A stretch of DNA of 63,997 nt, filler included, from Perkinsus olseni (taxonomy: Eukaryota): assembly GCA_013115125.1 (NCBI GenBank). It is 5 parts of 5 records of this genome, joined end to end, with 100 filler letters (N's around TTAATTAATTAA, not from the genome) between each part and the next. Parts side by side here need not be neighbours in the genome. Positions count along the whole stretch, not along the records: positions 41,440 to 55,133 come from JABANN010000749.1; 4 more parts are not named here. The stretch is one strand, 5' to 3'. Made by a program: the position numbers and the translations under genes. Positions 400 through 63,238 of the stretch are shown here, one piece after another. The notes under the pieces were generated by a model. The model had not been told where the DNA came from. It ran no database searches and saw only the letters and a list, made by a program, of their open reading frames with translations. Within the stretch, counting starts at the first letter, position 1. Every line of letters begins with the position of its first letter.

Positions 400-2750
400 G
401 CCACTCAGTGGATTTATCGATCATAGCTACGGTGTCCGCAAGTACAATTCTGTTGGTTGGTGTATGGGGTTCCCAATGCTGGCAGTGACAGAGCTAAGGG
501 CTGAGAATGGTATCCTTGGTGCTGTCGCCCTTACATTGCGATGTTCTACCATAGTGGCGGCACCATCATCTCTGCGGTCTACACAGTTGCACGCATACGT
601 TGAGGATTTCGCCGCCCTTGTTCGCCTTCGTGTTGCAATCGGATGAGCATGGGACAGCAAGTGTTTCAAATAAACTTGCTGCCTGGAATTGAACCAGGGT
701 GCTTCGCTTCCAAAGCAGGTGCTCTAACCGACTAATCAATTCAGCCGCAATCTGCTTCACTGGAACTTGGAGTGCCGCCCCTGACCTTCCACGGCACATT
801 AATAATGATATAATTATGGGAACCAGAGTCTCTAAATTGAAATAACGATCTCGTAATTAAACTCTCTTATTTTGTCGGGGAAGGTGAAGGAGCGAAGAGT
901 TCATTTTTCGGGTGATGTGCCCGAATGGTTGATCGCGGGTGTCGATTGAAGCTTTCCTTACACATCGTGCTGTCCATGGTACAATCGTGGAGCAGAGGAA
1001 TGTGAGGAATGAAATCTCGGCCGCCTTGGCCAGAAATATAAGGAAGTTTAGTGAGTTCAGACGGCGGTAGACAAGTCCTCCGATTGAAACTGTCCTTAAT
1101 AACGAGCAATACATGACTTAATTATCACGTCTTCCTGCTCTTAGGTTTCGACCGACTTCTTCTGCGTCTTCCTCCATCCTCGCGGTCCGCTGGGTCACAA
1201 AAGAGCACTTGAACCTCAAAAAGATGGATTCGCTCCACAATCGTGAAGTTTCTCAGCACGAAGAGCTGCCACTCCGATAATACACAATTTTGGTCTTCAA
1301 AAACTCTTCCGAATGCCGGCCGCTGCGGTCTCCTTAGCGTTAAGTCCTATGATGAATGGCGCCACTGACACCGTGCCAGCGCCTCTCCTTTCGTGAAGAC
1401 GCTCTTTAACGTGTTGACCACAGCGCCTCTGTAATCTTCTTTTTCAGAGTTCTACTAGCGCCAGGGGCAGCGGCAGCACCGCCCTAGGTCGTAGATACTT
1501 CTGCGCTGCCTTTTTAGAATTGGACTCGTGGGCGTGCAAGTCGGCAGGTGCTATTTTGAAAAAGCTTGGTGGTGTGTTGCTTTGAGAATTGGGCGGTCTC
1601 CATCCAGTGGGGATCGTAGTTCGATCCCCGGCCATTGTTTCTCGAATTTTGCATTCGTCCAGATCCCTCCAGTGCTTCGTGACTCCATCGTATGGGATTG
1701 AGTTTGGGAGATCCCGAGTTCAATTCTCGCTGGTAACATCTCTATAGCCGCGGAATAAGAGGCTCGTCTTTTCCGAAGCTGTGAGTGAGACTTCTCAGTT
1801 TAACAAACTCGACACGCTGTCTCTCCCACACTGTAACTGAGAAGTATTCGAGTAAGAGTGTACGGGTCGGAGCTGTTGATTACGACCGGGGGCGCTGTTG
1901 TTGTTCAGGATTTAACGAGTGTTGTATATTATTTTCTTGCTCCATGTCCGCATATCAAACAACAGGAGCCCAGTACAGTTCCAAGCAGGATGAGGCGCAA
2001 GGTGATACAAACGGGAAGATGGGGCTGTCTAGCTCGGAAATTTCGCGGAAATTTTGTCACTGCGAGTTTTGAGGAATGCAGCTCGCCGTTGGCTTGTTCG
2101 AAATAAATGCCGACTTTCGTTGAATTTTTCATCTGTTTATTGCAAGCATCGGGCGAAGATAATTCTTCTTGTGCTTTTTGTCTTTCTCGGAGTGTACTGT
2201 ACGCGTCGCGCCGCCTCGTCGGTCTCTTCAACGAGATGAGCGCTTAAAACGAGCTCGTCGTCCTGAAGTGAGGACGACGAGCCACCTCATGCTTCATCGT
2301 GCTCGTGGCTCGAGGACGTTCCATCTCATGTTCAGTCTGAGTTACATGTGAAACATTTGACGGTAACATGAGCTACCTCATTTCACCTGACTTGACCTTC
2401 TTATTTCATCTCGACGGCTTCCTGAAGGCGATTGTTCCAACCTCAACCATACTGAATGATGTGAAGTTGGCAGCGCCGCTGGAGTATGCACTCGCGGCTC
2501 ATCTGTTGTTACAGGTCGAGCAGCTTAGGGTACACCTAACAGTGAGGTGGATGAACTCGAAAAAACCGCGAGTGTATTGAACTGAAGGCTTTAAGGATGG
2601 ACCCACCTAGTGGCCCGAAATGAAATCGTCGAGCTGGAACAAGTGGTTGTTGCTGTTCAGCCCAGGGGAGGGGTCCTGCCCGGGCTTGATAAATCGGCTC
2701 GAGCAGTGGATACGTGAGAAACGATCTAGTCCCTCGACGCTCCACTGCGA
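400..2750 (-). mobile_element. Highly degenerate non-LTR (LINE-like) RT/RNase H remnant
   Basis: Broken minus-strand motifs occur in LINE order: KPGQDP-like (~2680), GTVLG (~1965), KYL (~1495) and a possible RNase H-like segment (~620-660). Many stops and frameshifts; boundaries approximate. Confidence 0.3.
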
Positions 2751-8007: not shown

Positions 8008-10964
8008 TCACAACCCAGTCCTCGCTCGCTTAGCCGGGGTAGCTCCTTCGTCGCGAGTTGTTACCGACGCAGACCTCCGGCCGAGCACTCGACCAGCTGC
8101 AGTCCCCTGCGGAGTCTCAGCGAGTTGCTCTATTCCGTCTGAGGAATCGGCGGTAAGTGCGTCATCAATATAGTGTAATCGGATGACACTATCGGGGAAT
8201 GCCGCACCCTGCCCGTCAATCGTCGCACCTAACAACAGATCCCAGGCGGCTCTATCTCGCGACCAGTACATGACAGTAGTCCCAACCATGAAGTTGCTGA
8301 TTTCAAAGATATCCCCGGCGCGCTTGAAAGCTTCGTCAATTTCCCTCGCATCAGTTCGTCCAGCGGTGTCGGTCACGAAACATAACTCGTTGAATTGGAT
8401 GAGACTCAGTGTGGGAGGAGTGAATGCCAACCCATCAGTCGTATCCAGAGGCACCCTAGAGAAGTACCACAGCATATCGTTGCCGAGTGTACTCTGTGAG
8501 CAGCGAGCCGTGGTGCAAAAGATAATCAGGCTGGCCTCCAACGATTGCCGATCTCCAACGGATATTTCCAATGACACTTCGGTAAACTGCTCTGTTGCTT
8601 GCTCGTTGAGGTACAATCCTATCGCAGGGGTCGTCATAGGAGCCATAGAGGCTGTCGGGGCGCTCTGATAAGAGTTGGTCCCGTGAGGTTGTTGACCTGT
8701 GCTACTTGCCGCGGAGCCGTCTATGGTTGGCACTGGTAGCGTCCCTGTGGCGGTAGTTGAAGGTGCGTTTAACGGGGCAGCCTCATGCATAGTGATCATT
8801 GATGCATCCCTAGGAGGGTTGTAGTTGTTGTCGGCTCCTGCCGCGCGGCCTTCGTTTGCCTCATCGACCGCTCGAATACTTGATGGATGGATGACGGCCG
8901 AAGCTTCGAGGGACGGCCCATTCTCTTCAACCATGCTGCCGGCTGCGACTACCGGATTTGTTTGACGTTGATCTCCTTTTACGCTCATGACCACTGGCGA
9001 GCACCCTCCATTAATTCGCTGCTGGCATCTGCTTGGACTCTCGAGGAATAACACCCAATGTCCGTTCGTCCAACAGATGTGCAATGAGGGAGTCAATTGG
9101 TTATCTGGTTTCATTGAGAATGTACTGTAGACCTGTGAAACCATAGTCACCGTCGTTAGCTCCCTCGAAAGGGCCCAGCAGTTTCTTCGGGTGATATAAT
9201 ACATCTCATACCCTATAGTTGCTTGAATATTGCCTCCGCGTGATTTCCGCTTCAGCACAACGGTCGTATCTTCTTCTCTCGGCATCCTGTCACTCATAGT
9301 CGAGTTCCCAAATATGAACCAAGCATTGATATCTTCACCCCTTGATGGAAGCACGGTCATTTCTATCCACCCCAGCGTGCCGAAAGTTGAAGTCGCCCCA
9401 TAGTAAAGTCCCGGTTCCATCTTGTTGACCCCTCCTCCTGGCGGGTTTTCGGTAACGGCTTCAGTAGTTGAAGGTGATGACGTATCCTCCGTCGACATCA
9501 CTGGTGTTTCCCGCGGAGTGTCATCGTTGGTGGCTCCCGTAGCATGTCCTGGGGCTTTCACGGTGCCTTTGACCGGGGTTATAGGGTCTAGTACGCCTGA
9601 AAAAGCGGAAAGCCGGGTTGTTGGGAGAGGGTCTTCTTCGCCCAACGATACTACCATCTGTGGTTCTTGAGGATGGTCCTTCTACACCCCTGCGTTGTCT
9701 CTCCATGATTACCGGTGAAGAGACTTTCTCGACATTCTCGCGCACGCCTTCGCTGCCGAAGAAGATAACCCAATCATCCGAAGTTCGACAAAGACGAAAC
9801 AATGCAGTTACTACGAGGTTTTGCGCGATTGAGAATTTCTCGTACACAGGGCGGAGTTTTGTGACGTATTCTTTCTTCTTCCGGAATCCCCAGCAGTTGC
9901 TCGAAGGGATCGTCTCCGGCGCGCCCATAGATACTTGGATGTGATAGTGACCTCGTTTCCGCTTCAATGCAATCGTCGTGTGTTTTCGACGCTTTGCCTC
10001 AAGAGGCTCTCGTGGCATCCTCACTTTCTCATCCGAGTTGCCAAATAGGAACCAAGCCTTGACATCGTCATCCGCGCTCAGCAGGACATTCATTTCTATC
10101 CACTCCAGCGTGCCGATAGTGGTTGAGGCGGCCCCATAGTAAAGTCCCGGTTCCATCTTGTTGACCCCTACTCCTGGCGGGTTTTCGGTAACGGCTTCAG
10201 TAGTTGGAGGTGATGGCGTATCCTCCGTCGACATCACTGGTGTTTCCCGCGGAGTGTCATCGTTGGTGGCTCCCGTAGCATGTCCTGGGGCTTTCACGGT
10301 GCCTTTGACCGGGGTTATAGGGTCTAGTACGCCTGAAAAAGCGGAAAGCCGGGTTGTTGGGAGAGGGTCTTCTTCGCCCAACGATACTACCATCTGTGGT
10401 TCTTGAGGATGGTCCTTCTACACCCCTGCGTTGTCTCTCCATGATTACCGGTGAAGAGACTTTCTCGACATTCTCGCGCACGCCTTCGCTGCCGAAGGAG
10501 ATAACCCAATCATCCGAAGTTCGACAAAGACGAAACAATGCAGTTACTACGAGGTTTTGCGCGATTGAGAATTTCTCGTACACATGGCGGAGTTTTGTGA
10601 CGTATTCTTGCTTCTTCTCGAATCCCCAGCAGTTGCTTGTAGGGATCGTCTCCGACTCGCCCATAGATACTTGGACCCAAGAGTGACGTCGTTTCCGCTT
10701 CAATGCAATCGTCGTGTGCTCTCGACGCTTTGCCTCAAGAGGCTCTCGTGGCATCCTCACTTTCTCATCCGAGTTGCCAAATAGGAACCATGCCTTGACA
10801 TCGTCATCCGCGCTTGAAACGACATTCATTTCTATCCACTCCAGCGTGCCGATAGTGGTTGAGGCGGTCCCGTAGTAACGTCCTTGTTCTATCTTGTCCA
10901 CCTTTTTTCCTCTGGCGAAGATGAATGATATAATTAAACTGCTCGTCTTGAGTAGTCGTTGCAT
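8008..10964 (-). CDS. Putative secreted tandem-domain protein (~946 aa; exons 10964-10391, 10332-9655, 9596-8008)
   Basis: N-terminal signal-like MQRLLKTSSLIISFIFARG. Three domains start K(M/I)ExGxYYG..GTLxWIEM and are separated by S/T/P-rich linkers. Two identical 58-nt GTAGTA..TTTTCAG introns (10333-10390, 9597-9654) join the three ORFs in frame; the DNA repeat period is 736 bp. Confidence 0.75.
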
Positions 10965-13590: not shown

Positions 13591-13729
13591 GTACACTATC
13601 GGATAAACACCGAAAACTCGTACACTATCGCTTCGTACACGGCTCGTACACTGAAGACTCGTTCACTCATCGGATTCATACATCGTCATTTCGTACATTT
13701 GAGACTCGTACACGTAATACTCGTACTCA
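13591..13729 (+). repeat. Dispersed (TC)GTACAC motif array
   Basis: About 8 copies or variants of TCGTACAC with variable spacers, running into the contig end. Confidence 0.65.
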
Positions 13730-13829
13730 NNNNNNNNNNNNNNNNNNNNNNNNNNNNNNNNNNNNNNNNNNNNTTAATTAATTAANNNNNNNNNNNNNNN
13801 NNNNNNNNNNNNNNNNNNNNNNNNNNNNN
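13730..13829. other. Artificial contig linker
   Basis: N-run + TTAATTAATTAA (stop codons in all six frames) + N-run, 100 bp in total. Confidence 0.98.
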
Positions 13830-14242
13830 CCACCAGAGCTGCGAGCACGGGCGTGTATGTCGCTCTTCTTGCCAGTGGCTCTACACTAGTACCACTGTCA
13901 TTGAGCGAGGCGGATAAACTCGATCTAGCTACGAATAGCTGCACTTTATACTCTGGGCGGGACTTGAACCCGCAACCTTTGGAATAGAAGTCCAACGCTC
14001 TATCCGATTGAGCCACCAGAGCTGTTTAGATTACCTTGTATATTCCTTTCTGTGCGAATGGCTCTCAACACTACTACCACATGGCATGTGGCGAGGCGGA
14101 TGAACTTGGCTACAGCTACGAATAGCTGCATCTCCTGCTCTGGGCGGGACTCGACATTACCGTGCGTGTAGCGCCGCGTTTTACCTCGATCAAGCAACGA
14201 TAGTTACATCTGTTACTCTGGTCAGGACTTGATGCCGCGACT
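13830..14242 (-). repeat. Edge of a tandem tRNA-Arg(TCT) array (~185-bp unit) with decaying copies
   Basis: tRNA 5' end at 13830-13839, a full tRNA at 13949-14022, and 3'-end fragments at ~14137-14155 and 14214-14242. The two spacers are homologous. Confidence 0.8.
13949..14022 (-). tRNA. tRNA-Arg (anticodon TCT)
   Basis: GCTCTGG TG GCTC AATCGGATA GAGC G TTGGA CT-TCT-AT TCCAA AGGTT GCGGG TTCAAGT CCCGC CCAGAGT A; all four stems pair. Confidence 0.95.
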
Positions 14243-25033: not shown

Positions 25034-27542
25034 ATAGCGAGATTGTTGCTGAGAGTGATGATGCTGACGATTGTGAGATGATAATAAAAAAGAAGAAGAA
25101 TAGAAAAGATATATTAAAAGAGGTTGCGTAAAAAGAAAGAAGAGTAGAATTATCCCGAGCTTGCCGTATTTTGAGTTTAGTTAATCGATCTGCTTTATCT
25201 AAGTTGACAACGGGTTTATGAGTGTTGTGATTTGCTCAGTTGCATCAGACGTCGGAGCTGAATGACTGGAGCTCCGACCCAGTTCACTCGGTTGGGTCGG
25301 AGCTGAAGGGGGTTGTCACGGGGTTGTCACGGCCACAACGTGACGTCCTGACCACTAGACGATAGCGACTCGAATTTGAACGCCTGAAAGCGCGGCCCAC
25401 CACAGCGACTTCGATTTCACGATCGAACATCTCCTCATGCCAGCCATCCATTATCCCCTCTATTCCAACAACTCATCGTAATGGCTCGTGGCCGGAGAGC
25501 CGCTGGTATCAGCGAAACTCAGAAGCGAGCTCTCGCCAAGTTTTTCGTGGGGCTGTTCGGAGCGGCTCTTATCGTCACCGAGTGCGCTTTTGTGATTGGA
25601 GTACTGCAGGTAGGCCGCTACAACAATCCCTGCATGCGCCATTGATAAACCCTATCGTCGTTCTCAGAAGCTGATGCGGTCAGATGCTGTCTGACCGACT
25701 GATAAGGGACCCCTCCGCCCCCGGACCTCCGCAACCTATCATGCCCGCCGTGGCTAGATTCCGCTTTGATAATGATTTGAGTTCATCACGAATGAGTAGC
25801 AAAGAACGGTAGCTGATTCGATATCAAGGCGGCAGCTAAGGCCAGTACCGTTGGGATCTTTAGCTAGAGTGTTTAGACGTGAAGCTGTTTGCTCATGACT
25901 CGATGGGAATAAGCAACACTCAATGAGGCCGCCCTCGCATATCCATAGGTCGGTCGATTCTGGATGATACGAATGAGCATAGATTTGGATTTGTGGCAGA
26001 AAAAGTACGGTGAAGTTGACCGTCGAAATTTCGTTTGCTTCTCTACTCTTGATAAGCGTCGCTTACACTTCGTAGGTGGGTCCTCCTCACGAGTCGCGTG
26101 GGAAACAACATAGCGAAGGAATTCTGTATGCTTGCATATGCTAAGGCAAGCATTTTCCGCGTCGGGACAATTTTCTTCTTCGCCTGTGCAACTTTCTTCT
26201 CGCGCACCTCACTTGCTACTCTTACTCGTTTTTCTCCTAACTGAGCCAAATTGGCTCAGCCAATCTTAATGCTGTATTCCAGCTCAGTTGCTGCCACGGG
26301 TTGCCCTAATATTCTATGCCTCGCCCGGGAAGACCTCCTGGCAAATGGGCCGATCGTAAGAAATCTTGCTCTCGCACTCTCGATAGAGTCATAAGCCGGG
26401 GCAACTATATTCTCAACGAGGTGGAGGTGCACATATTGAAGCATCTCCCTCCTGATTTACAGCGTGATATCGCGCGCAGGTGGATCCGCTTGCTCACTCT
26501 ACATCCTGACGACGGCGGCATTAATTTCGCCGAGGGTACCAGATTGGGGCTCGCCACCCGTAGAGCCGATCTGGCTCGTGTTCGGAAGGAGGCTGCGAAG
26601 ATGGGATCGTATTTCTTGCGATGGTGCGAGACGAACTTAATAATGTGCCGTTCGACAGTCCCCAGGAGGCCTCGGAACGCCAGTGCTCAGTCGCGCTCCT
26701 CTCCGGTCCGCGACCGTGGGAGTTCTCCGGGCTCTCAACCAGCCGAGTCTCCGGTACCACTACCACCTGTAGAGGATCCCGACCATAAGGGAGGAGAGTT
26801 GGCTCTCTTGTTACCTTCCCGGTCTTCGCCAGCGCAAGAGGTAGCTGGAGGCAGCAAGGGGTTCGTCCCACATCTGGAGGAACTGCGCTCCGCAGCTCGT
26901 TCGCGTCCTGCGATGGCCCTTTTTCCTTAGGTGCTACACCCGGAGCAGACTAAAGACGTGGTGGTTGGGCCAGCGCCGCGTTTCCTTGGTCTGGGAAGAC
27001 ATAGGGTAGATTTATATGCTGCGCAGTCTCTGCTTTCGCGGCGATATCTTCAGCTCTCTTCTTTATTCTCGGAGACCGAGTCCGCCTCGGATGCTGACAC
27101 CGTCTCTTCTGATATTTCTTCCTGCGGAAGTCGTGGCTTACGTGGACAGGATTCCAACCAGAGCCCGTCATGCTGGAAGGTTCGGTTCGCTGCATCTCTC
27201 GCCTCCATGATAACTCGCTGATTCAGCTCCGATCCCCAGTTCACTCGATTCCGCCTTCCGACTCCGGTGAGCTCTCGGAGCTCAGAAGCATCAGGTCAGT
27301 GCGCAGCGGCGCCGAGTCGAGCCAGAAACGGCATGAGGTGAGCCAAACGTGGGGCGCCGTGGTATTGTCTCGTTGTCCGTCTGGTTCTAATTGGGCAGTA
27401 CTCCGGCTACGTGATCGGACGAGGAGTAGTGAGTTATTGGGGGTCTTTCAGATGTGCTCGATCTGGAAGGACTCAGATAGTGAGAGTGGCCTGCCGGAGA
27501 TCATTTGTGACCCTATACCTCGCGAATTGTGATTCCACCACG

Positions 27543-27642
27543 NNNNNNNNNNNNNNNNNNNNNNNNNNNNNNNNNNNNNNNNNNNNTTAATTAATTAANN
27601 NNNNNNNNNNNNNNNNNNNNNNNNNNNNNNNNNNNNNNNNNN
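27543..27642. other. Artificial contig linker
   Basis: N-run + TTAATTAATTAA + N-run. Confidence 0.98.
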
Positions 27643-41200: not shown

Positions 41201-41339
41201 TGTTTGTGAATGTTGGCCACCACTGCCCTTTACTGTGGAGGATTTCATCTCGGTCTCCCCTGGCTGCGTACCTCCACCTTCAACGGAAACAAGTGTAAAC
41301 CGAGCCGTCCTTAAACGGAAACACGTCCAGCTTCTACTA

Positions 41340-41439
41340 NNNNNNNNNNNNNNNNNNNNNNNNNNNNNNNNNNNNNNNNNNNNTTAATTAATTAANNNNN
41401 NNNNNNNNNNNNNNNNNNNNNNNNNNNNNNNNNNNNNNN
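41340..41439. other. Artificial contig linker
   Basis: N-run + TTAATTAATTAA + N-run. Confidence 0.98.
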
Positions 41440-42078: not shown

Positions 42079-43589
42079 ATGGCTGACGTCTCTTTCGGCG
42101 TTGGTATTCTCTGTACCCTTCTCGCCGCCTTTTTCTACGGTATCCAATACGTGCCCTGTAAACAATACACCACCTTCGACGGTGCCGTCTTCCAATGGTT
42201 CATGTGCAGCGGTATTCTCTGGGGCGGCATCGTTCTTCAACTCATCCTGATGCTCGCTTTCGACTGGCCCGGTCCGCAGGTCATCCTCTACGGCGTCCTC
42301 TCCGGCATGCTCTGGGGCTCGGCGAATTTCCTGGTAATTCCTCTGGTCAGGATCTGCGGGCTGGCCTTGGGCTTTTCCCTATACCACATCATCAACTTAT
42401 CCTGGGGGTACTGTCTCAGTCGTTTCGGCCTCTTCGGGATGGACCAAGACGTCGGTCGGATACCCGTCCTTAGAGACGTTGGTGTCTTCGTGCTCCTAGC
42501 CTCCTTCGTTATGCTGTTCTGGGTTGAACCAGAGGAGGCGAAGGCCACCACCGCTCCCCTGAAGACCAAAGAAAGACCGTCGCAGAGCGTTCGTCACAAG
42601 GCTACGGCGCCGACCCAGTCCGATGAAACCTCTCCCATGGGCCAGGAGAATGATGACGACGTTGAAGTCGTTAAGAGCCCAACAGCAGGACAGCCGTCGA
42701 GGAAATATCTCTTTGGTCTGAGTCGCGTGCACGCCATTAAACTAGCAGGTAAATCGCCACTTAAATCTCTCCATTCCTCATTGCCGGGTCATTCAGGTAT
42801 CGCCTTAGCCATCGCCGCGGGAGTGCTGACTGCCATGAATGGATGGCCGTATGCTCTGTGGGCTCAGACCCAACAAGGGAAGGACATGATGGCGGTAGTA
42901 CACGGGAAGAGGTTGGGGGGCGCGGATACCAAATTTTGGAACTCTAATCGTTACTTCTAATTTCGCTTGTTAACTCGAACCGAAATTCTACCCTCGCGAT
43001 TCTAATCGTTCCAAATACCAAATTTCGCCCGAATCATTTGCATCTCGAATTAGCACTGTTCGCGCTATCTACACCCATTGCCACCATATTCTGTTCACCA
43101 GTGACCCCACGTCATGCGTCTCTGCAGGTGCAATTTGTATTCTCCCAAACCATTGGTATCTACGCCGTCTCCAGTATCTGGTACTGGCTCTCATCGACCA
43201 TCCGACAATTCGCTTTTAAAAAGCGTACCAATCACTCAGTTATTCGTCCAGCCTTCATTGCCGGTAGTGCCGTCTGTGGGATAGAACCTCTGCGGGATGT
43301 GATACAGCGGGTTTCAGGTCTCTTCTGGGTCATCGGTGATGTCAACATGCTTTACGGAATCGATGGTATCGGCTACGCGGCAGCTTACACTTTAGACGCT
43401 GTCGGACCGGTCATGGTCGCTAGTGTCCTCAGCCTTTTGTGGTTCAAGGAGATCAAGGAAACAAGGTGAATAAAATACCGTCGCCGGGGTTCGAACCAGA
43501 GACCTCTATTTCTCAGGCAGCGTCTATGGTTCACCGGTTCATTCGTCACTCAAGTCGCAGGTTGTATAATGGTAGCCGTAGGCGCCTAA
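42079..43589 (+). CDS. TMEM144: TMEM144-like (DMT superfamily) membrane protein, 5 exons
   Basis: FYGIQYVPCKQYTTFDGAVFQWFMCSGI, GMLWGSAN..GLALG..W..SRFGLFG and GPVMVASVLSLLWFKEIK match the TMEM144 pattern. Introns include 43264-43317 and 43466-43516. Confidence 0.85.
43268..43292 (-). pseudogene. tRNA 3'-end fragment (Lys-like) at the 5' end of TMEM144 intron 3
   Basis: Minus strand GGTTCTATCCCACAGACGGCA resembles a T-loop plus the CCCAC AGACGGC-N end of tRNA-Lys(TTT). Confidence 0.5.
43472..43507 (-). pseudogene. tRNA 3' half with T4 terminator inside TMEM144 intron 4
   Basis: AGAGGTC TCTGG TTCGAAC CCCGG CGACGGT A TTTT. Confidence 0.75.
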
Positions 43590-43957: not shown

Positions 43958-45151
43958 ATGTCGGACGGCGTGGAGGAGGACAGGGAGATCACACGCGATA
44001 TCTACGCCCTTTTAGCGGACAGCAGGGCCGAGCTATTCGATGACACAGTCGAAAGGTGAGCTCCTAATGGGTTCGAGTGACTGTAACAATGACTCTCTAA
44101 CTCGTGGAAGTAGCTGAGCTATGGAGACATAAGGGAGCAACTGTAGAGGAGAGTTAGGGCACCCAGCGTAGGGCGACGACCAACAGCGATTAGCTACGGA
44201 TCCTATGCTGCACATAAATGTCCGCATAATACCGTAACAAACTCCCTCTCTCGGTGCAATCAGTTCTCGGAGCGATCGTCTCGTCGGTGGTCAGTCGTCT
44301 CTCCGCCGCTCTGGCCCGTCTGCTGGCGAGGTTGCGTCAGAACAGCGGTGATCAGTGGATCGGGAATCGAATTGTAAAGGAGGTCCTGCTAGAAAATGGT
44401 AGGTCCTGGGATTCGAACCTGCGTCCAATATCCTCGACCATCAGGTACCGATCTCTTAATTAGAGTCATGAAGCGCTTCCCGGACCTCGCTGAACTGGCT
44501 GGCGAATGCATCGCCGCGGCAACCTCAGAAAATGTCATCTGCGGTTCCGGGGCGCCAACAACCGTCACTTTCGGCACTCCACCTCACGACGTTCAATTTC
44601 ACATGCAAACCGCCGACTACTACGGCGCTGGTCTCGGCTATAAAATATGGCCCGCCGCGATCGCGCTGGCCCGAGCAATCTATCAACATGATGTATCCCT
44701 CGGAGACCATCCGAAGGTTGTAGAGATCGGTGCAGGAGTCGGGCTAGCGGGCATTGCTGCGGCTAAATTCGGCGAAGCTTCTTCCGTCTGCTTCACGGAC
44801 AGGATGGCCGGGTCGTTGGAAGTCGCCATGAGAAACGCCAAGAGGAACTGCCTCAGCGGCAGATTTAGTAGTAAAGTCGTGGACTGGCGTGACGCTGATG
44901 GCCTGCCTGATGACGCTGATGTGATGCTCGGCGCGGATGTCATTTACGAGGAGGCACACGCCGAGCTGATCATGCAGCTGTTGAGGAACTTCCACGGCAA
45001 GAAGGCAGTACTAGCACTCATGCCACAGAGGCCAGGGTATAGGGAATTCATCTCGAAATTGAGGAATCTCAAGAGTGTGCAAGTTGCCAAGATGTCCGTG
45101 TCTACTCCGATAGGAGAATGTTCAATATTGGAGATCTCGGTGATTGACTGA
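43958..45151 (+). CDS. SAM-dependent methyltransferase, Methyltransf_16/METTL21-like; 5' exons tentative
   Basis: GYKIWPAAIALA, VVEIGAGVGLAGI, FTD, VDW and LGADVIY motifs. The intron 44399-44444 joins ..EVLLENG to TDLLIRVMK in frame. Confidence 0.85.
44399..44427 (-). pseudogene. tRNA 3'-end-like fragment at the 5' end of the methyltransferase intron
   Basis: Minus strand GGACGCAGG TTCGAAT CCCAGGACCTAC has a perfect B-box GGTTCGAATCC. Confidence 0.55.
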
Positions 45152-47131: not shown

Positions 47132-48103
47132 TAGACAATGCAAAACTGCCAACCACCGCCGACGCGTTGCGATGATTCCCGCAAACTTCAAAGCATCCTT
47201 CTCTCGACAACCCACGACGAGCTCATGTGATGCCAGAGGTGACCGCTGTCCGGGGCTCCTCTACCCTCTGCCTCATCGTCATCACCTCGTCGCCTTCGAT
47301 AGAATGCCGACGCTTCCTGCGAATACCAAATCTTCACCGCCACTCGAATGGCACCTACATGCTCATCCGCCTTGCCGCGCTACAAAGAGCCGCAGCCGAC
47401 ACGCAGAGGTCGCCGTCGAGCGAGTCGGAGTCTAGGTCCGCACACCACACTAGCCGACGGGGTAGACGATAGCCTGAAGCGTTCGATGAAGGGTTACTCT
47501 GGAGACGAATACTCACCATGAGGAGTACAGAATGGCTCCGGTCCGAGAGTGAGGTGCCCCTTCCTCGGGAAACACTCCCTGAGCGATCGCTCGGAGTTGC
47601 AGCGCCTGATCGAGGCAGTAGGGATCGTCAAGGGGACGACATGGGTCTTCCTATCCGACCTCAACCGTCTCGAGGAGGTGGTGTCCGATGACAAGCTTGA
47701 AAGGCGGCCTGAGGTTTGGGAAATACGGCTGGCCCGTCGCTGTTGATGGACCGACGGAAAATTCCGAGAGGAGTCCGTCCTCTCTGCAGAATAGTCGGAG
47801 TCTCCTTCAGCTCTTCTCGCCGCGCTATGCGCTGCTCGAAATCTTCAACTAGATGACGGAAGTGAACAGCGTCGGAGGACAAGACATGCTGTTTAACCAT
47901 AAAGAGGAAACTATCGGTGAAGAATCAACGAGATTGTACCTCCTGTAGCGTTCGAACCGGCGACCTGTCGCATCTAGGACGAACACCATGTCCAGCTGAG
48001 CCACGCCGCTCACGGCACACACTGAAAACCTCCCAATGAAGCGACGGCCATTGACAAAATCGGAGCATCCCTCTTCATAGAAAAGGAGTAACATAACCAC
48101 CAA

Positions 48104-50049
48104 TCACTGAATTCTCTCGATGACCACACTCGTCGCCCCTCCTCCGCCATTACATATTGTCGCACAACCGACACTGTAATCATTCTCACCCAAAATTCTC
48201 GTCAAAGTCCCCACCAGACGGGCTCCTGAGGCTCCAATGGGGTGCCCGAGAGCCACCGCCCCTCCGTCCACGTTAACCCTCGACGGATCTAGGTCCAATA
48301 ATTTCATATTGGCGATGGCCACCGACGAGAAGGCCTCGTTAATCTCCCAGACGTCAACGTCCCTGAAAACAACAAGGCGTCTAAACTGAGATAATCGCAA
48401 CTAGTTTACAAGTGAGACCATCCTGTTTGGAAAAACATCTCTTCACAACGGAAACCAACTCAAGCAAGACCGCCAGCTCTCCACTGTGGAGGACGCATGC
48501 ATGCCGCCCCCGCCGCCGCCGCCGCCGCGCGGATGAGGCGGAATGGCTCCCCCATGATGCTCACTTCGGCGTCATCCCTGCCTTCTGCAGTGCCACCCTC
48601 GCTGCCCCGGCCGGTGAGATCGAATAATCTATGGGGTCCTGCTCGAAATCTGCCCAGGAGATGATCCTGATCAGCCAGGCCACTTCAACAATCGATCAGC
48701 CGGGCGGGCGCTTCTATCACCGAGCCAGCGGGGTCAAGCCTTGTTCCCGAGAGAATTCCTCACTGACGACGACGAGTGCCGCTGCACCATCGTTGAGCTT
48801 GGAGGCGTTGGCGGCAGTAATGGTGCCATCTTTGATGAAGGCTGGTCGGACCGCTGCCACCCGCTCGATCTTCAAGTTCGTGAACCTGAATTCGACAAGT
48901 TGTTTCCAACAACCACGAGAGGTGAGACTCACTCCTCATCACTGTAAAAAATTTTAGGTTCGCCACCCTTGACTGTTGGGGGGACTTCAACTGGGAACGC
49001 CTAGGGAACGCTAACGCGTTGCGGATCTCGGGACGTGCGCAGCAACATTCGAGTTGGACTGGAAAGTGATGCACCGAACCTCCGAAACTTGCCTCATTCT
49101 TCATCTTTCCTTTACTCCACGCCGCGGCCGCCCTCTGATAGGACTGGATGGCGTAGTCATCCTAACGCACGAAGCAGCATTCAACTCGTAGCGGCGGGCC
49201 AAGACAGCACTTGCTCCTCTCGAGTAATGCCAAACTCTTTAACGGTCTTCTCAGCACACTTGCCCATGTGGATGTCGTTATAGACATCCCAGAGCCCATC
49301 TCTCAAGACTAGATCTACCAGCTGGCCATGGCCGTATCTAAAACACTCATCGCCCGATTAGTTCAGCTGGATAGAATGTCTGCCTACGGAGCAGATGGTC
49401 GTAGGTTCGAATCCTGCATCGGGTACTTACTTATACCCGCCACTCCTAGCCTCCGTCAATGCATGTGGCGTATTGCTCATCGACTCCATCCCTCCAGCAA
49501 CAATCTGCCATCATTCTATACCACCATCCACTGAGGAGTCACCTACCACATCGGCCTCCCCCACAGCGATGGAAGTAGCCGCGATAGAGACCGCCCTCAT
49601 ACCACTGCTGCACACTTTATTAACACTCATCACAATCGTGGACGAGGGAAGCTTGGCCGCCAAAGCTGCCTGACGTGCCGGGGCCTGACATAGATAGACA
49701 AACCGCAGTCGCACAGAACGAACCCACGACCACTGGCAGCGTAGGGGTGAAGATTAACCACTCGCCCATACTACCTGTCCACAAGCCGCTGAGAGTACAT
49801 GCCCCATGATAACCTGATCCACCTCTCCACCATCGACCTTCGCTTGAGCCAATGCTCGCGTGATGGCCTGAGGCGATCAAACATATCCCCTCAATCGCCT
49901 GTTAATGCTTTCCCAAAACCACCCACATGAGCTGCTAGTTGAGGCGCCTTGAACGACGACAACCTCCCCAAAAAAGAACCGATCGGAGTTCGAGCATAGC
50001 CGACTATCACCGCCGACCGAGGCAGGGAGAGGGGACGTATGATAGGCAT
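48104..50049 (-). CDS. Acetyl-CoA C-acetyltransferase (thiolase), multi-exon
   Basis: [73 protein letters not shown] and CNGGGG. Includes a GC-AG intron at 49001-49092. Confidence 0.95.
49352..49425 (+). tRNA. tRNA-Arg (anticodon ACG), antisense within a thiolase intron
   Basis: GCCCGAT TA GTTC AGCTGGATA GAAT G TCTGC CT-ACG-GA GCAGA TGGTC GTAGG TTCGAAT CCTGC ATCGGGT A; all stems pair. Confidence 0.95.
49704..49774 (-). pseudogene. Degenerate full-length tRNA (Ser-like) forming a thiolase intron
   Basis: GTAGTATGGGCGAGTGGTTAA...GGTCGTGGGTTCG..GCGACTGCG retains an A-box, a partial B-box and GTAGT/ACTGC acceptor pairing. The anticodon arm has decayed. Confidence 0.55.
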
Positions 50050-50579: not shown

Positions 50580-51590
50580 TCATTGCACTGTTCCTTCAAC
50601 TGTCGGTGTTCGCCCTTCAGGAGGGAACGGGGCGAAGGGTATCGGCAAGGCTTCTTCCTCCAGCACTGGCGCCTACGCAGGAACAGCACCCCAACCTGAT
50701 GGCACCGCAGAGTATCCAAACCCGGGCATACGTTAGGCATGGATCCTCCTCCTCCGGTCGGCCCTCCACCAGCCCCAGCGCTCATCATCGGAGTTGATAG
50801 TTCCCTTTGACGTGCCGTAGAATTGAAGAGCGAGAACCCCTTATACTGAGAGCCAGCTCTCCCGCCTCAACGCTATGCCCTCCCTATCCTAACCTTAATA
50901 GCGTAGTAGAGTGTGAGTGCTCCTGTAGATATCATAAACATGCCCGACAGGACACAGAAGAACGACCAGAACCTGACCAGGAGTGGGTCGGAGCGATCGC
51001 AGACTCCCTAACGGCCTACCCAGAGTTGACCTTGACTCCGTCGTCTTCTCCCAGTAACGCCATCAGCATCCTGGCCTCGCCCTCTTCACGACTGCCCTCT
51101 GTTACCGATCGAACCGACTTGTACGTATAATTGCCACTACACAGCATTCCTATTACCTGAAAAAGGGGGGAAACCTTTAGCGGAGCGAAGCTCTTCGAAT
51201 GTTATTACTATGTAGAAGACAGCACGACCGATGAATGAAGTCATGAAGGGTAGAACAGCCCGTATAACTTTATGAGCCTTCGAGTCTCGGGGCCTGACAA
51301 CAAACGCTGACTCTCCATCCAAAGGTCCCCGGATCGATCCCTGCAGCCTGCATTTTCATACCACAACTCCGCAATCATCCCGGCAACACCCAAGCCACCA
51401 AACAAGGCAAGGTCAGCCAAATTACGTAATAACCTCCACAACGAATACTGAGGACAGAAAATGTACCTGAGAAAATACAAATACCCCTCCCGGGGTTCGA
51501 ACCCGGGACCTCCTACGATAACGAATGCACCACCATCAATAAGCATGAGCCGCTCCCACTGAGGCGAAGGATGTGCTCGATGCTAGCCAT
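50580..51590 (-). CDS. COPI-associated/TVP15-like small membrane protein, 6 exons
   Basis: Spliced MASIEHILRL..GMIAELW..VLPFMTSFIGRAVFYIVIGML matches the COPI-associated pattern (FxxxxxGRxxFY). Confidence 0.7.
51317..51356 (+). pseudogene. tRNA 3' half with T4, antisense in COPI-gene intron 2
   Basis: ATCCAAAGGTC CCCGG ATCGATC CCTGC AGCCTGC A TTTT. Confidence 0.6.
51482..51516 (-). pseudogene. tRNA 3' half forming COPI-gene intron 1 (sense)
   Basis: GTAGGAGGTC CCGGG TTCGAAC CCCGG GAGGGGT A followed by TTTGTATTTT; the T-arm is perfect. Confidence 0.8.
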
Positions 51591-51767: not shown

Positions 51768-52645
51768 TCAGAGGAATCCTGACGCGCACCCGGAAGATTT
51801 TCTCCCTGGATGTCTGCGAATTGAATCTTTATACGTTTCTCCTTTGCAAAGTAGCCAACAATGGAGGCCGACGTTTGGGACCTGACAGGTTCGATCGTGA
51901 TGGCCTGGGTTGGATCTGCGATATGGCACTACTACCGCTGATACTATCCCGACGATGGATGCCAATACTAAGGCTAACGACGCCCAAGGGAGTCTCCGGC
52001 TGATGGCGAAAAACAAGTACCTGACACAACAAACCGTTCTCAAGCACCGTCCTCCAACCCGAAGGTCTCCGGATCGAATCCTTGCTGTGATATCTCGAAG
52101 CCTCCTTATTACACCACGACGATCCCTCCGGCAGCCGCTGTCCCGATCCACATTTGACACATCCGAGGCAATGCAGAGCGTGATAATAAAAACAATATGA
52201 TACTGACCGCGACAGCACAACAGACCTGAGACAACCATCACTACCACCGACGTCACTCCCCACCAACCACTATCCATGCAACCGGTATGGGAACTATCGT
52301 CCTCCCTCGGTCATCATCAGTAGCGAAGGCCACGCAGGCACAGACCCCCACTCCTACGCTGAGGAGCATGTAAATGCTGCATACCACAACAAACAGTATC
52401 TGATGGCAGAGCAGATGGTCTCGGATCTATCACCCACCGTCTTACGAAGGCTCGTCTGTTCCGCAGTCCGATGCAGTTGTTCACCACCGCACAGTGATGA
52501 TCGAACTCTCGAATACAGTAGCCGCACTCGGAGCCTGTCTTGAAGGAGCCTCAGGGGTAGGACGAGGAGAGAGTACCCTTACAGTGACTCCATCCATCCA
52601 GGCGATAAATCTTGCAAGTGCTGCAGAAACGGACGTCATGACCAT
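51768..52645 (-). CDS. Hypothetical multi-pass membrane protein, multi-exon
   Basis: Splicing 52021-52112 gives [53 protein letters not shown]. The start is tentative. Confidence 0.55.
52056..52092 (+). pseudogene. Initiator tRNA-Met-like 3' half, antisense in an intron
   Basis: AACCCGAAGGTC TCCGG ATCGAAT CCTTG CTGTGAT A has the GGATCGAA T-loop and TGATA end typical of eukaryotic initiator tRNAs. Confidence 0.7.
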
Positions 52646-63165: not shown

Positions 63166-63238
63166 AACATACTGGCATAGTGGTATGCGCCTCTGCTTCC
63201 ACGCGCACGGTCGCTGGTTCGAGCACAAGAGGCCGAAT
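63166..63238 (+). pseudogene. tRNA-like A/B-box element (pseudo-tRNA or SINE head)
   Basis: A-box TGGCATAGTGGT and B-box GGTCGCTGGTTCGAG at tRNA-like spacing; the stems do not pair. Confidence 0.45.

Follow-up and report, generated by a model that had tools for sequence, protein, structure and literature searches.

Intron 2 of a thiolase gene of Perkinsus olseni probably contains the remains of a transfer RNA (tRNA) gene. The gene lies on the minus strand of a 63,997-nucleotide (nt) stretch of DNA from assembly GCA_013115125.1, made of five parts joined end to end and hereafter called the window. Intron 2 itself is an ordinary, efficiently spliced U2-type spliceosomal intron. Its first 72 bases, together with the last base of the preceding exon, are best read from their sequence as a tRNA-like copy in sense orientation that is heavily decayed and no longer functional, a reading that we consider probable. 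A sequence-only reading of the window had proposed a decayed tRNA-Ser at this place. The copy as we read it is not recognisably a tRNA-Ser; its D-arm is of the Ser/Cys kind and its 3′ block resembles tRNA-Arg(ACG).

The intron runs on the minus strand from 49774 to 49685 as GTAGTATGGGCGAGTGGTTAATC...GTGGGTTCGTTCTGTGCGACTGCGG, followed by TTTGTCTATCTATGTCAG (in full, 5′ to 3′, GTAGTATGGGCGAGTGGTTAATCTTCACCCCTACGCTGCCAGTGGTCGTGGGTTCGTTCTGTGCGACTGCGGTTTGTCTATCTATGTCAG). The strings cited in the sequence-only reading were found on this strand, and the intron that it had placed at GQ|APARQA is real. Spliced contigs from all three RNA-type runs (X11, a declared RNA library, X17 and X12) skip exactly its 90 bases, with a joint from 49683/4 to 49774/5 (‘skips 90') whose ends are CT..AC on the plus strand, that is, GT..AG on the gene strand. 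Eight more introns, of 59, 42, 93, 49, 92, 47, 54 and 202 nt, are crossed by the same contigs. No joint at intron 2 or at any of these eight other thiolase introns was present in the DNA run, X1. GT..AG ends and precise removal in RNA are the marks of a U2-type intron. Intron 2 splits a 405-codon thiolase frame in phase 0 between ...SAACGQ and APARQAAL.... Exon 1 matches positions 2-29 of the Pfam Thiolase_N profile, exon 2 positions 30-60 and exon 3 positions 62-106, so that removal of intron 2 restores a continuous Thiolase_N domain; the last exon matches Thiolase_C (E=3e-32). Depths on the intron 2 bin in the three runs were 0.16, 3.06 and 2.88, against ~5 to 125 on the adjoining exon bins, values that come from contigs only, are weak and say nothing firm about intron-derived small RNA.

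Read without indels in the register of a class I tRNA, the putative unit is 73 nt long and is laid out from a D-arm block, TGGGCGAGTGGTT, and a GGTTCG anchor (Table 1). From T8, where the D-arm block begins, to GGTTCG the distance is 44 nt, which is the class I spacing. In this indel-free layout exon 2 ends on tRNA position 1 (49775), and positions 2-3 are the GT of the donor. In the sequence-only reading the first base of the tRNA had supplied the donor directly; the unit does begin at the exon/intron border, but its GT falls one position later, and the earlier register needs one lost base. The 27-nt block CCTACGCTGCCAGTGGTCGTGGGTTCG spans the anticodon loop, a variable loop of 5 nt, the 5′ strand of the T-stem and the start of the T-loop. 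Within it, CTACGCT places C32, T33 and A34-C35-G36 in register; position 37, at which a purine is usual in tRNAs, is C. The A box shows one mismatch to the general consensus TRGCNNAGTGG. Beyond the unit lies the T/C-rich tail TTTGTCTATCTATGTCAG, and T-rich tails resembling it also trail other tRNA relics of the window.

Table 1. Positions of intron 2 and its tRNA-like parts, of the two tRNA genes and of further tRNA-like units, counted along the window.
Feature	Position	Strand	Basis or remark
Thiolase exon 2 (...HVLSAACGQ)	49775..49867	-	Spliced contigs, Pfam Thiolase_N match
Thiolase intron 2	49685..49774	-	90 nt, GT..AG, phase 0; spliced contigs X11, X17, X12
Thiolase exon 3 (APARQA...)	49547..49684	-	Spliced contigs, Pfam Thiolase_N match
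Putative 73-nt tRNA-like unit, indel-free class I register	49703..49775	-	D-arm block and GGTTCG anchor
D-arm / A-box-like block TGGGCGAGTGGTT	49756..49768	-	tRNA positions 8-20, begins at T8
27-nt block CCTACGCTGCCAGTGGTCGTGGGTTCG	49719..49745	-	Likeness to tRNA-Arg(ACG) positions 32-58
Anticodon-loop-like CTACGCT	49738..49744	-	C32, T33, A34-C35-G36 in register
GACTGCG, 3′ acceptor-like strand	49704..49710	-	5/7 pairs with G|GTAGTA
Tail TTTGTCTATCTATGTCAG, T/C-rich stretch and acceptor AG	49685..49702	-	18 nt
Thiolase intron 4	49338-49430	-	93 nt, spliced in three runs
tRNA-Arg(ACG), intact	49352-49425 (ARAGORN 49352-49426)	+	ARAGORN; Rfam 61.8 bits; R1 71.3 bits
tRNA-Arg(TCT)	13949-14022	-	ARAGORN
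Decayed tRNA-like unit	677-745	-	R1 29.1 bits
Decayed tRNA-like unit	51483-51571	-	R1 20.8 bits
Decayed tRNA-like unit	25314-25369	-	R1 17.9 bits
Decayed tRNA-like unit	47955-48010	-	R1 14.4 bits
Decayed tRNA-like unit	43476-43538	-	R1 13.3 bits
Weaker tRNA-like unit	44402-44438	-	
Weaker tRNA-like unit	52040-52087	+	
Weaker tRNA-like unit	63176-63223	+	
Weaker tRNA-like unit	8107-8143	-	

The likeness to tRNAs was measured against the tRNA genes of the window and a library of 204 tRNAs (187 distinct) from 115 prokaryote loci. Local alignment of intron 2 with the intact tRNA-Arg(ACG) of the window gave an ungapped identity of 21/27 (intron positions 30-56 versus tRNA positions 32-58), which was equalled by 5 of 2000 shuffles and, in a repeat, by none of 500. 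A nominally significant alignment to a genomic tRNA is thus present; the sequence-only reading had named the lack of any significant one as its refutation. Alignments of intron 2 to the tRNA-Arg(TCT) gene and to the reverse complements of both window tRNAs were not significant. When the comparison was anchored on GGTTCG, the 21 nt upstream proved identical to tRNA-Arg(ACG) at 15 positions, the best other GGTTCG site of the window reaching 11; at random window positions the null probability of 15 or more is 2.5e-5. This 3′ block provides an independent test, because the sequence-only reading had not used it. Its two best library matches, in a comparison with 189 tRNAs (183 with a usable T-loop anchor), were both Arg(ACG): the window gene with 15 identities and a bacterial gene with 14.

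The 5′ part of the unit is tRNA-like as well. The D-arm 13-mer TGGGCGAGTGGTT is identical at 12 of its 13 positions to positions 8-20 of four bacterial tRNA-Ser, and it is the sole match in the window to TGGCCGAGTGGTT at one mismatch or fewer. Among the 127420 other 13-mers of the window, just 8 differ by at most one base from any D-arm 13-mer of the library (126 in all). The two blocks were then considered as a pair in 400 windows simulated by a first-order Markov model and scanned on both strands (13109 GGTTCG sites). On 4 occasions a D-arm of at most one mismatch lay 42-47 nt from GGTTCG, an upstream identity of at least 15/21 arose at 18 sites, and the two together were found in none of the 400 windows. 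A looser pair (at most two mismatches and at least 13/21) occurred twice. Four sites of the real window pass this looser pair, namely the true tRNA-Arg, intron 2 and the relics at 63216(+) and 47958(-). Against the 187 real tRNAs, the average of the top ten scores was equalled by 1 of 500 shuffles in local and 1 of 400 in semi-global alignment. Intron 2 shows both a likeness to a tRNA of the same genome beyond that of shuffles and blocks in canonical order and spacing, as is looked for in a relic.

A series of results weighs against a tRNA origin. Block lengths and thresholds were chosen after the data had been seen, so that the tight figures look stronger than they should; those for the looser pair (~0.005 per window) are independent of that choice. 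The Rfam tRNA model (RF00005, gathering score 29 bits) gave no match at E<=10 in either 2301 nt or 121 nt around intron 2. ARAGORN called two tRNA genes over the window, none of them in intron 2, and found nothing on a 141-nt excerpt at default settings or with -ps. We also built our own covariance models, R1 for class I (from 135 tRNAs) and R2 for Ser (from 36 bacterial tRNA-Ser, with no eukaryotic ones). With filters off, R1 gave the two real window tRNAs 71.6 and 71.3 bits; intron 2 alone received 2.0 bits in a meaningless alignment and was not among the 19 R1 matches at E<=10 across the window. R2 performed no better on it (2.2 bits, again with a meaningless alignment), and the window-wide R2 list at E<=10 does not contain it. 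A class I hidden Markov model (HMM) searched with nhmmer scored 2.3 bits (E=9.6) on the piece GTGGTCGTGGGTTCG, and the corresponding Ser HMM had no match to intron 2 at E<=1000. The covariance-model comparison by which the sequence-only reading was to be checked does not bear out a tRNA likeness.

Structure and ranking point the same way. The minimum-energy fold of the 72-nt segment consists of two hairpins and is no cloverleaf; its z-score is -1.1, and 24 of 200 shuffles are as stable. RNAfold pairs GACTGCG with GTGGTCGT and not with the 5′ end. Of the 17 in-register pairs of the acceptor, anticodon and T-stems, 11 can form when G-T is counted (acceptor 5/7, T-stem 4/5 with three G-T, anticodon stem 2/5), so a cloverleaf is not preserved. 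The maximum score against any single tRNA was equalled by 7 of 500 shuffles (local) and 27 of 400 (semi-global), and the intron 2 tile ranks 33rd of 2842 window tiles, mostly behind relic-bearing tiles. No single parent covers both blocks; outside the 27-nt block the likeness to tRNA-Arg(ACG), read by eye, is at chance level. Comparison of the unit with ten other window relics gave no significant result, the best being equalled by 9/500 and 11/500 shuffles. Separately, ARAGORN at thresholds of 80% or lower reported a 96-nt ‘tRNA-Ile', which was rejected as an artefact that starts in the exon and uses a different register.

The noise-level covariance, HMM and fold results, the tile rank and the single-tRNA maxima would all suit a chance resemblance, in which an ordinary intron with an A-box-like 13-mer and a GGTTCG stretch was picked by eye among many introns. 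The window has no excess of GGTTCG (33 sites versus 31 expected), and the 5′ GTAGTA of intron 2 resembles other donors of the gene, such as GTAGGT and GTAAGT. Chance does not readily account, however, for two independent blocks spaced exactly as in class I tRNAs, a combination absent from every simulated window, or for the anchored 3′ match to the tRNA-Arg(ACG) of the same window, and T33 and an anticodon-like triplet stand in register as well. We therefore regard chance as an unlikely explanation. Of the decayed sense-strand tRNA first proposed, the tRNA-like blocks on that strand and the start at the exon/intron border are supported; the likeness is not recognised by profile and covariance models.

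As to the kind of tRNA, the assignment to Ser did not hold. A long variable arm does not fit within the T8-to-GGTTCG spacing: the variable loop is 5 nt in the intron 2 unit, and the tRNA-Ser of the library are 83-92 nt long. Positions 34-36 carry ACG in place of a Ser anticodon, and the 3′ block is closest to Arg(ACG). A Ser-type D-arm (TGGCCGAGTGGTT...) is present at 12/13, in a comparison with bacterial Ser genes only. All six of the top six D-arm matches are Ser, followed by His, Cys and Tyr, and a class I tRNA-Cys of the library has nearly the same D-arm (2 mismatches). Since the 5′ third, read by eye, is unlike the Arg(ACG) gene of the window, the parent would be either another tRNA family of the organism or two fragments.

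In the latter case, a 5′ piece of a Ser/Cys-like tRNA (with a TGGCCGAGTGGTTAA-type D-arm) would have been joined to a 3′ piece of tRNA-Arg(ACG) (CCTACG...TGGTCGTGGGTTCG) by recombination or successive insertions, as the different best matches of the two blocks would suggest. Exact class I spacing without an indel and ends that pair at 5/7 fit one copy, though, and not two independent pieces, and a D-arm of this kind may go together with an ACG anticodon in the eukaryote-type tRNAs of the organism. A composite of two fragments consequently seems quite improbable to us, and a single tRNA-like copy remains the reading that we prefer.

The copy would no longer work as a tRNA gene. No cloverleaf is left. 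G52 to G57 stand in register, and the B box, kept from G53 to G57, is broken at A58 and C61, both of which are now T. An intact B box carries G53, T54, T55, C56, A58 and C61, and the two changed positions are invariant across the 135-tRNA class I alignment. A run of four T was looked for after the unit and was not found. An element still in use, either as a site for RNA polymerase III (Pol III) and TFIIIC or as a selected, intron-borne small RNA, might be suggested by the near-consensus A box. It is very improbable given the damaged B box, the missing T-run and the lack of a stable or tRNA-like fold, and the low depth on the intron bins (contigs only, and weak) also speaks against it.

If the intron derives from a tRNA, a copy of a class-I-type tRNA gene would have inserted in sense orientation at the intron 2 site. 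The donor GT would now lie within tRNA positions 2-3 (or 1-2) of this copy, and the pyrimidine tract that precedes the acceptor AG would be supplied by the T-rich 3′ flank of the copy. Given such a derivation, the odds that the insertion created intron 2 and that it landed in a small older intron are about even. The intron without its tRNA-like unit measures 17-18 nt, whereas the other short introns of the gene have 42-59 nt, which speaks against a simple insertion into an older intron of the normal kind, unless sequence has since been lost. Intron 4 of the same gene consists of an intact antisense tRNA-Arg(ACG) plus 19 nt, a remainder close to that of intron 2, and the two look as insertion-born introns would be expected to look.

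A one-step origin can be proposed tentatively, as a possibility that we hold to be less likely than not. In it, a sense tRNA copy would have entered the coding sequence at CAG|G; the GT of the donor would have come from its first bases, the pyrimidine tract from its T-rich Pol III terminator flank, and the acceptor from a duplicated CAG. CAGG is present at both ends of intron 2 (‘both 4'), where it falls on letters that are usual at splice sites, and 2 of the 9 introns of the gene show four ambiguous letters. The depth of the DNA run on the unit is 203, equal to that of the flanks, which makes it single-copy at a likeness of at least 90%. No second copy was found in the window, the longest other match being 12 nt. 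With a single copy and no companion in the window, the unit does not belong to an active introner family.

Intron 4 offers the nearest comparison, a tRNA nested in an intron. In intron 2 a tRNA-type unit fills 73 of the 90 nt, and in intron 4 such a unit fills 74 of the 93 nt. The unit of intron 2 is on the sense strand, has decayed beyond the reach of tRNA finders and overlaps the donor, whereas in intron 4 the tRNA is antisense and intact, lies 4 nt inside the donor and is multi-copy in the DNA run. In that run (133 contigs) the summed depth on tRNA-Arg(ACG) was 92066, compared with ~200 on the flanks, so this tRNA appears to be highly multi-copy.

Besides the two tRNA genes, the window holds several decayed or weaker tRNA-like units (Table 1), and nhmmer reported further partial tRNA 3′ halves. 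T-runs trail several of the relics, with CAG or TAG soon after some of them. The relic at 47955-48010 lies on the gene strand ~100 nt beyond the thiolase stop codon, just outside the end of the RNA contigs; it has a D-arm 13-mer identical to that of a library tRNA and scores 18 bits with nhmmer (E=1e-4). Intron 6 of the thiolase gene (49001-49092, minus strand) has GC..AG ends and a length of 92 nt, and the spliced contigs that support the other introns support it too; it starts with GCAAGTTTCGGAGGTTCGGTGC, in which the likeness to a T-arm is very weak (0.8 bits with nhmmer). A separate transcript contig with deeper coverage (50130-50300, minus strand) stops just upstream of the gene, on its strand. 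The window contains 352 N's in runs of ~44, paired at ~13.8-kb intervals (13729-13829, 27542-27642, 41339-41383 and further); they are probably masked.

Among known systems, introners or introner-like elements are transposon-derived introns (PMC9860276, PMC3609843). Intron 2 resembles them as a precisely spliced piece of what would be inserted DNA; the short direct repeat CAGG at its ends coincides with usual splice-site letters. It differs in having no second copy in the window and single-copy DNA depth, and neither inverted repeats nor a transposase context is known for it. The main text of PMC9860276 mentions neither ‘tRNA' nor ‘Perkinsus', and in the text available of PMC7789003 Perkinsus figures only in comparisons unconnected with introns. 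Our search of the literature on Perkinsus introns or tRNA and on intron gain found no description of tRNA-derived introns. A link between tRNA genes and mobile DNA has been described in the genus: according to PMC3706591, Dada DNA transposons target tRNA genes in Perkinsus marinus. They show a Perkinsus genome in which tRNA genes are unusually numerous and tied to mobile DNA; Dada elements, however, measure 4.7-11 kb and insert into tRNA genes, and nothing of the sort is seen at intron 2 (PMC3706591).

With tRNA pseudogenes and the heads of short interspersed nuclear elements (SINEs), intron 2 shares a decayed tRNA-like sequence with an A box and a partial B box in register. Unlike SINE heads, its unit is single-copy, lacks a SINE body and tail, and stays within a spliceosomal intron, nearly all of which it fills. 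A metagenome scan with the two motifs of intron 2 at class I spacing returned 120 loci, with ARAGORN tRNAs in 3 of the 120. Most of these loci (>100 copies) belong to one tRNA-like repeat family with a GGGCGCGCGGTGGCGTAGTGGTTAAGGC... head, unrelated to the window. We took this family to be SINE heads, apparently from some host genome, because of its many near-identical copies. Being mostly repeats, with three ARAGORN tRNAs among them, the metagenome loci were unusable as tRNA comparators. The same motifs gave no match in a scan of viral sequence.

Taken together, these results bear on how introns arise in a genome of very short introns. The origin of new spliceosomal introns is a long-standing question, and the known sources are mostly transposon-like introners. 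By itself the case of intron 2 is statistical and old, and its value lies in a near-full-length sense copy. It is a further sign that introns in the genome of this parasite are seeded or filled by tRNA genes. An intron nearly co-extensive with a tRNA copy, together with intron 4 in the same gene, makes a testable case for dispersed tRNA genes supplying ready-made introns. Were the one-step origin true, this single gene would hold, with intron 4, two tRNA-born introns, and tRNA genes would be an introner-like source of introns in perkinsids.

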